A DNA stretch of 64,000 bases, taken from IMG/VR virus record IMGVR_UViG_3300018481_000018, positions 67,759 to 131,758 of that record; one strand, written 5' to 3'. This DNA is from a virus. Lineage: Duplodnaviria; Heunggongvirae; Uroviricota; Caudoviricetes. The translations under genes were made by a program, and so were the position numbers. How positions within the stretch are numbered: position 1 is the first letter of the stretch; each line of letters begins with the position of its first letter. This document shows, piece after piece, positions 3,183 through 61,920 of this stretch. The notes below the pieces were generated by a model, which was not told the origin of the DNA, did no database searches, and saw only the letters and a list, made by a program, of their open reading frames with translations.

Positions 3183-3946
3183 CAGCTGTTCTCCTTCTCC
3201 CAGAAGTTCTCTGCGTCTTCCGTCGTGGTGATGGCTGCCTTGATGTCGTCAGGCACCTCGAGGCTCTCGTCGCGGATCACCTCGTAGCCGTTCTCGACAC
3301 CGCGCTCGGTCTCGATGCGCTTGCGGAAGGCGGCACTGCGGGCGCTCTCGATGTTGTCGGCGTCCCATTCGGCCTTGACCTCGGCGTACGGCCTGCCGTA
3401 CAGCACCTCGGCCGCGAGCTCGTAGGGGTCATGGGCGACCTGGAAGTACTCGCCGTCCTCGATCCGGTAGTGGTCGAGGTTGGAGCCGAAGTCCTCGTCG
3501 GCGTACTTCACCTCGAACTCCTCGTCGGGGAACTTGGCGGAGAGTGCCTCAATGATCGGAATGGGGTGAGACCAGGCGGTCTGGAACGTCAGCCGGCACA
3601 GGTCGCCGGGCAGCGGCTCGATCTCGGTCGAGTAGGCGTTCCACTTGGTGCCCCAGTGCCCGATGTTCCAGGAGTACCAGCACACGACACCCGGCTCGTG
3701 CTGACTGTTGCAGCCGCCCTCCTCCTTGTTGGGCGGGCTCGGGACGATCAGCTCGAAGTCCACGAACCGCTTGGGCAGTTCCTCCTGGGGGTAGGGCCAC
3801 TCGTTGCCGGTGCGCTCCTTGTAGCGGACCTTGGTCTCGGCGTGCTGCTGGTCGTGCGCAGCGATCTCTGCGGCGGTGTGCTCGCGAGTAATCGCGTGGA
3901 TCACCTTCGGGTTCGCGATGATGATGTTGCTGACGTGATTCGGCAT
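3182..3946 (-). CDS. hypothetical protein, possibly DUF1281/Api92-like ferredoxin-fold family (254 aa)
   Basis: N-terminal MPNxxSN motif; strong SD CCAAGGAGGAA before ATG 3946. Confidence 0.6.
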   Translation of the reverse strand: MPNHVSNIIIANPKVIHAITREHTAAEIAAHDQQHAETKVRYKERTGNEWPYPQEELPKRFVDFELIVPSPPNKEEGGCNSQHEPGVVCWYSWNIGHWGTKWNAYSTEIEPLPGDLCRLTFQTAWSHPIPIIEALSAKFPDEEFEVKYADEDFGSNLDHYRIEDGEYFQVAHDPYELAAEVLYGRPYAEVKAEWDADNIESARSAAFRKRIETERGVENGYEVIRDESLEVPDDIKAAITTTEDAENFWEKENS

Positions 3947-10691: not shown

Positions 10692-10733
10692 AAAATCGGG
10701 TGGTGGGTGGTCGGTGACCAATGTTCGGATTGG
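10692..10733 (-). promoter_or_regulatory. conserved promoter-like motif (CAATCCGAACATT core plus CACCCACCACCC tract)
   Basis: Near-identical 40-mers at 17770, 24368, 28300; lies 5-45 nt upstream of gene start 10686. Confidence 0.55.
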
Positions 10734-17769: not shown

Positions 17770-17810
17770 ATTTCGCGTGGGTGGTGCTGGGACTGAATGT
17801 TCGGATTGAG
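17770..17810 (-). promoter_or_regulatory. conserved promoter-like 40-mer (..CAATCCGAACATTCAGTCCCAGCACCACCCACGCGAAATC.. on - strand)
   Basis: Same element as 10692, 24368, 28300; immediately upstream of vWA gene start 17743. Confidence 0.55.
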
Positions 17811-24367: not shown

Positions 24368-24408
24368 ATTTCGCGTGGGTGGTGTTGAGGTCCAATGTTC
24401 GGATTGAG
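24368..24408 (-). promoter_or_regulatory. conserved promoter-like 40-mer (CAATCCGAACATTGGACCTCAACACCACCCACGCGAAATC on - strand)
   Basis: Third copy of the long motif; 14 nt upstream of ATG 24354. Confidence 0.55.
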
Positions 24409-48640: not shown

Positions 48641-48656
48641 CCTTGTTCGGATTGGG
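48641..48656 (-). promoter_or_regulatory. promoter-like motif copy (CCCAATCCGAACAAGG on - strand)
   Basis: Matches CAATCCGAACA core; start of 520-bp non-coding region. Confidence 0.4.
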
Positions 48657-50402: not shown

Positions 50403-50419
50403 GGCAATCCGAACAAAGG
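50403..50419 (+). promoter_or_regulatory. promoter-like motif GGCAATCCGAACAAAGG at divergent switch region
   Basis: CAATCCGAACA core; last - strand gene starts at 50398, first + strand gene at 50430. Confidence 0.5.
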
Positions 50420-51854: not shown

Positions 51855-51868
51855 CAATCCGAACAAAG
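51855..51868 (+). promoter_or_regulatory. promoter-like motif CAATCCGAACAAAG upstream of tRNA cluster
   Basis: Same core as other copies; ~95 nt before first tRNA. Confidence 0.5.
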
Positions 51869-51962
51869 ATCGTGTACCCTCGCCGCATGAGATTCGGAAG
51901 GCACTGGCGCAACTCCGCCTGATCGTCGGCTACGTGCGGCCGGCGATCAGCCATGGCCCGTA

Positions 51963-52034
51963 GCTCAGCGGAAAGAGCACCCGCCTCCTAAGCGGTTGGC
52001 GCAGGTTCGAGTCCTGCCGGGCCAGCACGAGTGG
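51963..52034 (+). tRNA. tRNA-Arg (anticodon CCT)
   Basis: Manual cloverleaf: acceptor TGGCCCG/CGGGCCA, D-stem GCTC/GAGC, anticodon loop CTCCTAA, T-arm GCAGG-TTCGAGT-CCTGC. Confidence 0.75.
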
Positions 52035-52039
52035 GCATA

Positions 52040-52113
52040 GCTCAAGTTGGCAGAGCATCGGTCTCCAAAACCGAAGGTTGCAGGTTCGAGCCCTGCTGCC
52101 CATGCGATCCGGA
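52040..52113 (+). tRNA. tRNA-Trp (anticodon CCA)
   Basis: Manual cloverleaf: anticodon stem TCGGT/ACCGA perfect, loop CTCCAAA, T-arm GCAGG-TTCGAGC-CCTGC. Confidence 0.75.
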
Positions 52114-52168
52114 CTACGACCTCGGCCGAGATGAGGCACGAGCATCAATGATCCGGACTGGTCCCGTA

Positions 52169-52241
52169 GCTCAAGTGGCAGAGCGCCCGGCCCGAAGCTG
52201 GGAGGCTGGAGGTTCGAGTCCTCCCGGGAACGCAGGATGGG
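52169..52241 (+). tRNA. tRNA, isotype uncertain (anticodon loop CCCGAAG reads CGA with C33; short variable arm)
   Basis: Acceptor GGTCCCG/CGGGAAC (one G.A mismatch), D-arm GCTC-AAGTGGCA-GAGC, T-arm GGAGG-TTCGAGT-CCTCC. Confidence 0.55.
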
Positions 52242-53264: not shown

Positions 53265-53293
53265 GAATGTTCGGATTCCCAATGTTCGGTTAC
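53265..53293 (-). promoter_or_regulatory. two tandem promoter-like motif copies (GAATGTTCGGATTCCCAATGTTCGGTTAC)
   Basis: Seen in sequence; 50-80 nt upstream of - strand gene start 53214. Confidence 0.5.
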
Positions 53294-57951: not shown

Positions 57952-58683
57952 ATGCCTAGAACCGAGAAGGTCATCGTCGCCAACTTCTATGGAGGCGGCA
58001 ACAAGCAAGGGGATCGGCTGCGACGTTGGCTCTCCTTCATCGGGTTCCATGTTGTCTTGATCTCCGAGCTCGGCCATCTGATCGACGAGCTCGAGAAGAT
58101 CGGCAAGGTCTACTACAACCGCAAGGAGTCCAGGCCCTACGACGTGGGGATTCTCGTCTCCAGTTCTGTGATGAACCGGTCTGCGCGAGCGATCTCCTGG
58201 ATGGGCGGGAAGTTGACGCCCTTCGTCCGGCGCAAGGGTCCGGCCAAGCGTCTGTGGCGCGACCGCTGGTTCGTGCGCGTGCGGATCTGGGGTCGGGTCT
58301 ACTACTCGATCCACGCCAATGCAGCGATCACGGGCCCGAAGGGGAACTGGGTCCACAACAAGGGTGCCGCCGTCTGGAAGGAGGCCCTCCGCGAGCTCCA
58401 GGGGATGATCCGCGAGGACATCAAGAAGGGGCTGCGGGTCCGAGTTGGCGGTGACTTCAACATGATCGAGAGCGATGCGGAGAACGCGCCCAATGACTTC
58501 TTCGAAGAGCTCGGCATGAGGCATGTGCACGATCGAGTCATGTGGTTCGGGTGGAACCCCGACACTGACAGGCTCGTGGAGCACAGGGTCCTCGGCATTG
58601 CTCCAGGAGCCGATGCTCACAACGTTCTGGTCGTCAAGCTTCGGCGCATTCGACGCAAGCGGAACCGCAAGAATCGCCGCTGA
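57952..58683 (+). CDS. endonuclease/exonuclease/phosphatase (EEP) superfamily-like protein (243 aa)
   Basis: VGGDFN motif and HANAAITGP; ATG 57952; ORF-track upstream part junk. Confidence 0.55.
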   Translation: MPRTEKVIVANFYGGGNKQGDRLRRWLSFIGFHVVLISELGHLIDELEKIGKVYYNRKESRPYDVGILVSSSVMNRSARAISWMGGKLTPFVRRKGPAKRLWRDRWFVRVRIWGRVYYSIHANAAITGPKGNWVHNKGAAVWKEALRELQGMIREDIKKGLRVRVGGDFNMIESDAENAPNDFFEELGMRHVHDRVMWFGWNPDTDRLVEHRVLGIAPGADAHNVLVVKLRRIRRKRNRKNRR

Positions 58684-58695
58684 TCCAGTTGCCTC

Positions 58696-58709
58696 AATCC
58701 GAACATTCG
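58696..58709 (+). promoter_or_regulatory. promoter-like motif CAATCCGAACATTC
   Basis: Exact core; followed ~220 nt later by intrinsic terminator. Confidence 0.5.
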
Positions 58710-58962
58710 GGCATCATTGGTCCTGGCGCAGGATGGCTAGAAACGGGAACCGGTGGTGTGAACACTGGCCCCCTCGGAGTCCATGACCGCATGCAAGAGC
58801 CGTTGCTTTGGGAGTGCACCCCGGGTCTCGGTGGCTACAGACGGGTGGGGCTTCGGCCCGGATGAGGACCGTGTGCACCGCGAGCGGAATGCTGCTGATC
58901 TGAAACCAGGTTTCTGCGCCACCGTGAAAGCCCCGATTCGTTACCGCATCGGGGCTTTTTCG
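58710..58962 (+). ncRNA. candidate small non-coding RNA (promoter-to-terminator unit, ~230 nt)
   Basis: Bounded by motif at 58696 and hairpin+U-tract at 58927-58962; no ORF with RBS inside. Confidence 0.35.
58927..58962 (+). terminator. rho-independent terminator AAAGCCCCGAT(tcgttaccgc)ATCGGGGCTTTTTCG
   Basis: 11-bp stem plus T5 tract; only canonical U-tract terminator in window. Confidence 0.75.
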
Positions 58963-59048
58963 TGCGCTAGGGTTGGTCTCGGTCGGGTTGGGCGTCACGG
59001 CCCCCTCGCAGCCAGTCCCGTTGAGTACTACTCCAGGAGGTTGCGATC

Positions 59049-59471
59049 ATGTCTGTCCGCGCGAAGTTCTTTGTTACCAGGCTGGTGAACCCCGAGGGTG
59101 CCACGGCCGCCGAAGTCGGTCTGACGCCCGTGTGTCGGGGTGTCGAGAACGCCCTGTGGTCTCAGGCCACTCCGTCCGGCTCGATCACGATGCATGTCAA
59201 GAACAACCCGGCCTTCGAGCAGTTCGAGCAAGGTGCCGAGTACGAGGTGACCTTCCGCAAGGTTGAGAAGCCCATGCCTGGTGACGGTCACCAGGTCAAG
59301 CCGGTCACCAACATGCACGGGTGGGACGTGTGCGAGATCTGTGGTGCTCACCTCGGTGCCAGTCACGCGCTGGTCGAGAGGGAGACCTGGCGAGCGGGGT
59401 ACGGCCCCGACAGTGAGGCGTACAAGAAGGCCCTGGTCATGCACGAGGAGACGTACGCCAAGGCTGAGTGA
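59049..59471 (+). CDS. hypothetical protein (140 aa)
   Basis: ORF track; SD CCAGGAGGTTGCGATC. Confidence 0.6.
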   Translation: MSVRAKFFVTRLVNPEGATAAEVGLTPVCRGVENALWSQATPSGSITMHVKNNPAFEQFEQGAEYEVTFRKVEKPMPGDGHQVKPVTNMHGWDVCEICGAHLGASHALVERETWRAGYGPDSEAYKKALVMHEETYAKAE

Positions 59472-59692: not shown

Positions 59693-60523
59693 ATGTCTGG
59701 AATCTTGTGGCACCATTCCTTCATGGAGCAAGTGAAGCTCGAGCCTGAAGTGCTCGACAACGCGTGGGCCGACTACAAGCTCAAGGGCGATCTCTCAGCT
59801 CGCAACGACCTTGCTCTCCACTACGTATCGCTGGTACGCGTGGTCGCGTTCAAGATCGCTGCGCAGCTGCCGAAGATGGTCGACCGCGAGGACCTGATGT
59901 CGTACGGGCTCTTCGGGCTCCTCGACGCGATCGAGAAGTATGACTTCGACAAGCAGGTGAAGTTCGAGACCTACGCGGTCACCAGGATCCGAGGAAGCAT
60001 CTTCGACGAGATCCGGGGCCTGGACTGGGTGCCCCGAACCGTCAGGGCCAAGGCCAGGGACATCGAGCGAGCGGAAACCGAGCTTCATGCCAAGCTCGGC
60101 CGGCCGGCAGCGGATGCGGAGGTGGCGGCGCACCTGGGCGTGACGCTGATCGACCTCTGGCAGACCCAAGCCCTGGCAGATAACGGCGTCGTCAACAGCT
60201 ACTACGACGACATCGGGGAGGGTGGAGCCGATGGCAAGACGGTGAGCGAGCGGTTCGCCTACACGAAGGCGGCCTACGATCCGACAGCCAATCCCGAGGA
60301 TCTCTACGCATCGCAGGAGGTTTGCGAGCTCTTGGCCGAAGCGGTCGACATGCTCCCTCAGCGATCAAAGACCATCCTCGTCCTCTACTACCTCTACGAG
60401 ATGACCCTGGCCGAGATCGGCGACATCCTCGGGGTCACGGAAAGCCGCGTGTGTCAGCTACAGAGCAAGCTCCTTCAGACACTTCACGTGTCCCTCGCGG
60501 AGGGACTCGTGGCGGCAGCTTGA
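59693..60523 (+). CDS. sigma-70 family RNA polymerase sigma factor (FliA/WhiG-like)
   Basis: Region 2 YGLFGLLDAIEKYD..FETYAVTRIRGSIFDEIR; region 4 HTH LTLAEIGDILGVTESRVCQLQSKLL; ATG 59693 after GGAGAATGAGGG; ORF-track upstream 75 aa rejected. Confidence 0.75.
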   Translation: MSGILWHHSFMEQVKLEPEVLDNAWADYKLKGDLSARNDLALHYVSLVRVVAFKIAAQLPKMVDREDLMSYGLFGLLDAIEKYDFDKQVKFETYAVTRIRGSIFDEIRGLDWVPRTVRAKARDIERAETELHAKLGRPAADAEVAAHLGVTLIDLWQTQALADNGVVNSYYDDIGEGGADGKTVSERFAYTKAAYDPTANPEDLYASQEVCELLAEAVDMLPQRSKTILVLYYLYEMTLAEIGDILGVTESRVCQLQSKLLQTLHVSLAEGLVAAA

Positions 60524-61904: not shown

Positions 61905-61920
61905 TCGAAACCGAACATTG
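61905..61920 (+). promoter_or_regulatory. promoter-like motif GTCGAAACCGAACATTGAG
   Basis: CCGAACATT core 14 nt upstream of ATG 61934; divergent region. Confidence 0.45.

Follow-up and report, generated by a model that had tools for sequence, protein, structure and literature searches.

The species 1 and 2 RNAs of bacteriophage T4 are stable small RNAs found beside the tRNA genes of the phage, and GOLLD and ROOL are large structured RNAs of prophages, ~600-800 nt in length and often located beside tRNAs. To our knowledge few structured non-coding RNAs have been described from phages and most of these are without known function. Sequence comparison leads us to consider it credible that the unit described here, which is found in an intergenic region of a phage contig, defines a previously undescribed family of phage non-coding RNA: the family has three sure members, each with a promoter-like motif at one end and an intrinsic terminator at the other.

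The window (the whole stretch of 64,000 nucleotides that was analysed) is part of a metagenomic contig of 144,413 bp and has a GC content of 61-70%; related contigs are of ~135-144 kb and one of these carries a terminase. A close relative among cultured phages was found neither at the DNA nor at the protein level, the sole DNA match to a cultured phage being a 42-nt 5′-UTR hairpin in cyanophage Pam4; we thus take the source to be an uncultured large phage. Its host is probably a member of the Actinomycetota; among the relatives there is one that carries the label of a Nonomuraea MAG. Besides three tRNAs (51954-52233, recognized by both the Rfam scan and ARAGORN), the window encodes Ku-like and ligase-like proteins and, at 59693-60523, a FliA/WhiG-type sigma factor, the gene for which is situated ~700 nt downstream of the RNA unit.

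The RNA unit itself (58695-58960) sits between two protein genes, one at 57952-58683 and the other beginning at 59049. The 243-aa product of the upstream gene has no Pfam or PHROG match of its own. However, two of its homologues (P0014 and a 234-aa protein of locus L012) contain PF03372 (Exo_endo_phos), and for this reason we regard the product as a probable nuclease or phosphatase of the exo/endonuclease-phosphatase (EEP) family. In loci L012-L017 the EEP-like gene is found downstream, rather than upstream, of the 140-aa gene that begins at 59049 in the window.

Relatives of the locus were retrieved using the flanking proteins as anchors and the RNA was then searched for with nhmmer among 60 loci. 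Homologues were found in two further metagenomic phage contigs, L006 (L007 is identical) and L008, with E values of 1e-68 to 1e-73; there were no others among the 60. When blocks specific to the RNA were searched for as patterns, neither IMG/VR nor the JGI metagenomes nor the GTDB genomes returned a true homologue: three genome and four viral matches were discarded as chance-like, all lying in coding-like sequence devoid of further similarity. Both L006 and L008 retain CAATCCGAACATTC upstream of the RNA and a terminator of their own downstream, and yet the gene ahead of the unit differs in every case: EEP-like in the window, an extra 123-aa gene in L006 and a Thy1-like gene in L008. A unit that occurs behind different genes, together with its own motif and terminator, is more readily understood as mobile and self-contained than as the 3′ UTR of gene 57952-58683, an alternative that the initial annotation had itself raised and which these arrangements rule out. 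Nucleotide identity between the window and L006 is 78% in the RNA core, 73% in the EEP gene and 86% in the genes for the 140-aa protein and the sigma factor.

Protein-anchored relatives bearing RNA units are limited to L006/L007, L008 and L010. The last of these contains two units in tandem (1955-2110 and 2112-2424) upstream of the 140-aa gene, each with motif and terminator; the first has a core of just 57 nt (1991-2047). Both share with the window RNA the blocks GAUGA(G/C)G...GA(C/U)C(C/U)GAAACC..GGU, and one of them presents a GUGUGAA-loop hairpin on an unrelated stem (AGCCA/UGGCU). A covariance model trained on the three sure members, and covering the core minus P2 and P3, gave the L010 units a score of 7.0 bits (E 2.5), which is not significant. 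The shared blocks are therefore suggestive only of a relationship with the window RNA, the first L010 unit being, perhaps, a minimal version. In L003 the corresponding position (3756-3910) is occupied by two tRNA genes; in L002 (3668-3900) a TATCCGAACAAT motif and a strong terminator flank ~190 nt that show no relationship with the window RNA, probably another non-coding RNA gene, distinct from that of the window. L005, L011 and L012 have no RNA at this position. With tRNAs in one relative, another RNA in a second and tandem units in a third, the position behaves as a slot for RNA genes.

Several open reading frames cross the region. The initial annotation recognized two frames inside the unit, but there are more on the plus strand: in addition to 58783-59088 (101 aa) there are 58808-58903 (31 aa) and 58689-58865 (58 aa, with a TTG start and beginning upstream of the motif). 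None of the plus-strand frames is conserved in L006 or L008. When compared in translation with the homologues, the RNA shows similarity only in stretches of 8-36 aa, which are spread across all six frames; within any one frame the best of the matches have 38-47% identity, compared with 70-95% for the flanking proteins. Furthermore, the three-way alignment of the RNA contains frame-breaking indels of 1 nt and 4 nt, and the 58783 frame meets a stop after ~27 codons in L006 and is without an ATG in L008. On these grounds a coding function was rejected and the region is considered non-coding.

The motif at the 5′ end of the unit, CAATCCGAACATTC, corresponds to the promoter-like core that the initial annotation had placed at 58696; the motif is indeed present, but we put its start one nucleotide earlier. 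Allowing up to three mismatches it occurs 13 times in the window, compared with 3.0 ± 1.8 times in shuffled sequence (none of 100 shuffles reached 13). Its core, AATCCGAACA, is found in 10 copies with no more than one mismatch, all oriented toward a downstream gene or the tRNA cluster: in five of the 10 a ribosome-binding site and start codon follow ~45-60 nt past the core, and the copy at 51856 lies ~90 nt upstream of the tRNAs. In its recurrent form, (A/G)AATCCGAACA(TT), the motif stands upstream of operons on both strands and has no clear −35 element; it is also found ahead of the RNA in L006, L008, L010 and L002. On the minus strand a conserved leader, CACCACCCAC, comes after three of the copies.

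The motif core TCCGAACA resembles GCCGATAA, which we take to be the −10 element of sigma-28/WhiG promoters. Since a FliA/WhiG-type sigma factor is among the products of the phage, this likeness suggests the holoenzyme involved: the motif probably defines a promoter class recognized by the phage's own sigma factor. If 58695-58708 does act as a promoter of this class, then transcription of the RNA is predicted to start near 58712-58716.

At the other end of the unit AAAGCCCCGAT (58927-58937) pairs with ATCGGGGCTTT (58948-58958) over a 10-nt loop to form a GC-rich stem, with the T-run at 58956-58960. The 11-bp stem and T5 of the initial annotation are thus confirmed, and its description of the structure as the only canonical U-tract terminator of the window is essentially right: when hairpins at every T-run of four or more were ranked on both strands of the 64 kb, this one came first at −20.3 kcal/mol, followed at −15.6 kcal/mol by the antisense of a tRNA. 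A standard terminator scan missed the hairpin (58927-58958) because its loop is longer than 8 nt. In the homologues each terminator has a sequence of its own, with four stem pairs changed on both sides.

Structure prediction, as the initial annotation had recommended, yielded a multi-helix fold common to the three copies. Details of the fold are given in the table, together with the remaining features of the locus. The core is closed by P1, in which two adjacent pairs swap from A-U/G-C to G-C/A-U in L006. In P2 two pairs are changed on both sides in L006. P3 is a long-range helix formed by UCGGAGUCC (58774-58782) and GGGCUUCGG (58848-58856): it is 100% paired in all three sequences and shows a double swap, again from A-U/G-C to G-C/A-U, in L006. 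GGAUGAGGACC, at P4, is invariant across the three members, as are the pairs of P6. Compensatory changes occur in P1, P2, P3 and P3b, as well as in the terminator.

Across the alignment of three sequences 94.9% of cells are paired in the proposed fold. Pairs changed on both sides number 11, compared with 4.0 ± 1.5 in shuffles (none of 500 reached 11) and 0-1 when the partners are slid; P5 was left out of the count, which is drawn from three independent sequences only and leans toward the fold because the structure was derived from those same three sequences. Unconstrained minimum free energy (MFE) structures of the L006 and L008 cores contain P1, P2 and P3, and in the window the constrained fold, P3 included, comes within 0.5 kcal/mol of the MFE. 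The folding energy of the single sequence is unremarkable (z = −0.6 on the plus strand, −1.0 on the minus strand), a measure that is uninformative at 63% GC. A local UUCG hairpin, GGGC-UUCG-GCCC (58848-58859), was replaced by the long-range P3 since the changes in L006 are compensatory in P3, but yield only wobbles in the hairpin.

The junction sequence UGGCUAGAAAC has a near-repeat at 58832-58845. In longer form the two copies read GAUGGCUAGAAACGGG (58734-58749) and GGUGGCUACAGACGGG (58830-58845); the repeat is present in L006 and absent from L008. It could represent an internal duplication, or provide an alternative pairing with the run of five C at 58769-58773.

Table. Features of the RNA locus (positions refer to the window)
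Feature	Position	Strand	Basis or remark
Promoter-like motif CAATCCGAACATTC	58695-58708	+	Recurrence, orientation, presence ahead of the RNA in relatives
Motif (A/G)AATCCGAACA(TT), plus-strand copies	50406-50415, 51856-51865, 58696-58705, 61908-61917	+	
Motif (A/G)AATCCGAACA(TT), minus-strand copies	10722-10731, 17798-17807, 24396-24405, 48644-48653, 53268-53277	-	
P1 5′ strand GGCGCAGGA, closing helix of core	58725-58733	+	9 bp with 58912-58920
Conserved unpaired junction UGGCUAGAAAC	58734-58744	+	Alignment blocks GAUGGC and GAAC
P2 hairpin, GGG/CCC plus CCGGUG/CACUGG, conserved loop GUGUGAA (58756-58762)	58745-58773	+	
P3 domain, encloses variable hairpins	58774-58856	+	
P4 mini-hairpin CGG/CCG, invariant loop AUGAGGA	58859-58871	+	3 bp only, weak support
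P5 variable hairpin	58875-58892	+	By eye; sequence differs, hairpin at the same place in each member
P6 hairpin AUCUG/CAGGU, loop AAAC, in invariant block GAUCUGAAACC	58898-58911	+	
P1 3′ strand UUCUGCGCC	58912-58920	+	
Intrinsic terminator: 11-bp stem, 10-nt loop, T5	58927-58960	+	Strongest T-tract-linked hairpin in the window
TAGGGT, host-type −10 candidate (TANNNT) for 140-aa gene, outside the RNA	58968-58973	+	
5′-UTR hairpin GGUCGGG-YU-[stem]-CCUCGCAGCC of 140-aa gene, neighbouring unit	58981-59013	+	

The gene that follows appears to be a separate unit. It has the strong ribosome-binding site ascribed to it in the initial annotation (AGGAGG), preceded by a hairpin beginning GGUCGGG that lies ~35-60 nt before the start codon throughout this family of 140-aa genes. 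The hairpin is found in 16 loci, including loci without the RNA and the cyanophage Pam4. Loci containing it are the window, L002, L003, L005, L006, L008, L010-L012, L018-L020, L023-L025 and L029; in Pam4 it is located at ON014756.1 4810-4842 (L009 1501-1533). Its outer stem, which includes a CA bulge, is invariant and the inner stem covaries (G-C, C-G and A-U types). Between actinophage-like contigs and the cyanophage the hairpin is ~90% identical, whereas the proteins are only ~35-40% identical. A covariance model of the hairpin found exactly one copy per locus at 33-48 bits, three loci outside the training set included; there was no match in Rfam. It may be a translational operator or a 5′-end stability element, and could be of more interest to specialists than the RNA gene itself.

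In 13 of 16 loci, cyanophage included, the hairpin is preceded at 6-9 nt by a TANNNT hexamer, a spacing that would make the first G of the hairpin the expected start of the mRNA of the 140-aa gene. The hexamer is replaced in L011 and L012 by a GCCGAAGTA motif, which resembles both the phage motif and the sigma-28 −10 element. With its own −10 candidate located after the terminator, the downstream gene would, as far as the sequence can tell, have no need of read-through; candidate and hairpin together argue for two transcription units, divided by the terminator at 58960.

We consider the chances to be slightly better than even that 58695-58960 is a stand-alone gene for a structured non-coding RNA: driven by a phage promoter, ended by a terminator and acting in trans, by way of its fold, with a protein or ligand partner. 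The RNA would be transcribed from the phage-specific promoter class with core TCCGAACA, presumably by the phage FliA/WhiG-type sigma factor. The transcript, predicted at ~245-250 nt, would fold into a core closed by P1 and bearing arms P2 to P6, with conserved nucleotides left unpaired at UGGCUA..GAAC and in the loops GUGUGAA, AUGAGGA and AAAC; the strong terminator would end the RNA and its hairpin would also protect the 3′ end. Action in trans would be by shape: the RNA would bind a small ligand, or a protein of phage or host origin, and serve as a component of a ribonucleoprotein or as a decoy; antisense pairing would not be its main mode of action.

The layout of the locus – promoter-like motif, P1-closed domain, terminator 6 nt after P1, genes – is also that of a classic riboswitch or attenuator leader. 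It is possible, though on balance unlikely, that the RNA is a cis-acting leader (a riboswitch-like attenuator, or a processive-antitermination RNA of the HK022 put/EAR kind) gating read-through past 58960, in which case transcripts from the TCCGAACA promoter would either stop there or reach the genes for the 140-aa protein and the sigma factor. The segment GGGGCUU (58847-58853) has two potential partners: it pairs in P3, and as GGGGCUU(C) of the P3 3′ strand it complements AAGCCCC in the 5′ arm of the terminator. The alternative pairing amounts to 7 bp in the window and 8 bp in L008, and in L006 a U-A pair becomes C-G, P3 being double-swapped as well; this, however, is a single compensatory change, chosen post hoc. 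Given that the downstream region encodes a sigma factor that may read the TCCGAACA class, a feedback loop is conceivable. Against a leader function, the 140-aa gene has its own conserved −10 element (a predicted promoter) and 5′ hairpin irrespective of whether the RNA is present; regulated attenuators do not usually have terminators as strong as these; and an antiterminator could form only if both P1 and P3 were undone, which is non-canonical, and it is absent from L010. The tandem units of L010, each with promoter motif and terminator, and the tRNAs in the L003 slot also count against a leader.

The initial annotation described the arrangement as typical of a small regulatory RNA. Insofar as this means a stand-alone non-coding unit, comparison with the relatives bears it out; insofar as it means a conventional RNA whose conserved single-stranded loops pair with host or phage mRNAs, we regard it as quite improbable. 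The unit has the promoter motif, the Rho-independent terminator and the lack of an ORF that such an RNA would have, and the loops GUGUGAA and AUGAGGA and the C-rich CCCCCUCGG could act as seeds, but CCCCCUCGG is largely paired in the model, and what is conserved is an entire core of ~200 nt, made up of several helices of which the long-range ones covary, which is atypical of RNAs built from a seed and a terminator. A core of this size, with helices enclosed by P1 and conserved junction and loop nucleotides, looks more like a protein- or ligand-binding RNA. That the region is instead a non-functional remnant – a decayed gene or recombination module caught between a promoter and a terminator of its neighbours – we find very hard to believe. 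In favour of a remnant are the small number of known members (three), the unexceptional folding energy and the lack of a match to any database family; yet the RNA is as well conserved as a neighbouring protein gene, compensatory changes are found in four core helices (P1, P2, P3 and P3b) and in the terminator, the unit moves together with its promoter motif and terminator, and the translated similarity holds no trace of a decayed ORF. A bolder reading, which we think unlikely, sees the RNA as the first of a new class of functional phage RNA: either a switch, responsive to a ligand or protein, that gates expression of the phage FliA/WhiG sigma region, or a structured RNA that attaches to host machinery (RNA polymerase or a defence protein, for example) and re-programs it. 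The 57-nt unit of L010 would then be the functional core.

Taken together, the analyses identify a well-supported candidate for a non-coding RNA gene, based on three sequences. The candidate is compact and clearly bounded by promoter motif and terminator, and the phages to which it belongs, of ~140 kb and with their own sigma factor, form a large clade that is uncultured throughout. Should the transcript be confirmed, it would constitute a tractable new RNA family in which to test for protein or ligand partners, and would offer a first handle on the TCCGAACA promoter class of these phages.

Comparison with known RNAs, including the Rfam scan proposed at the outset, placed the RNA in no described family. 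At the gathering threshold the 4227 models of Rfam 15 returned, from the whole window, only the three tRNAs. A permissive scan of 58500-59150 (E ≤10) produced sub-threshold hits only, mostly to the terminator (ohsC, sar, NsiR1), along with a spurious snoZ6. The RNA units of L002, L006, L008 and L010 likewise match no Rfam family, the unit of L002 giving nothing beyond terminator look-alikes, and ARAGORN found neither tRNA nor tmRNA in the RNA region. The sequence GAUGA ... CUGA/GAAAC raised the possibility of a hammerhead ribozyme or a box C/D kink-turn. For the former, the core reads CGGAUGA or GCGAUGA and lacks U4, the would-be stem III loop is of 0-1 nt and there is no match to an Rfam ribozyme; for the latter, there is no complementarity that would form the flanking C-stem, CUG-AAAC-CAG forming a hairpin instead. 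Both were rejected, as were resemblances to cobalamin and TPP riboswitches arising from short motifs.

Two RNA polymerase-binding RNAs, 6S RNA and Ms1, are also structured and of ~200-300 nt, and the fact that the window RNA adjoins a sigma-factor gene makes modulation of RNA polymerase conceivable; however, its multi-branch junction is unlike the long irregular hairpin with central bubble of 6S/Ms1, and no Rfam match links them. With riboswitches, attenuators and put/EAR leaders it shares the order of promoter-like motif, P1-closed domain, terminator and genes, along with a segment that has two potential partners. It differs from them in the promoter-like element and 5′ hairpin of the downstream gene, the tandem units of L010 with a promoter motif each, the strength of the terminators and the lack of an Rfam riboswitch match.

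The closest parallels are with RNAs encoded by other phages. Like the pRNA of phi29, the window RNA is phage-encoded, of ~170-250 nt and multi-helix, is predicted to be independently transcribed and is proposed to act by shape with a protein; the two differ in that there is no match in sequence or model, no location at a genome end and no link to packaging genes, and the phage lineages are unrelated. With T4 species 1 and 2, GOLLD and ROOL it has in common that it is structured, non-coding, encoded by a phage and not known to base-pair with a target, and it echoes their association with tRNAs: tRNAs occupy the slot in L003 and the motif precedes the tRNA cluster of the window. At ~250 nt it is far smaller than GOLLD and ROOL, and it has no Rfam match and no similarity to tRNA. 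The window RNA is thus a member of none of these families, but in kind it resembles T4 species 1 and 2, phi29 pRNA, GOLLD and ROOL.
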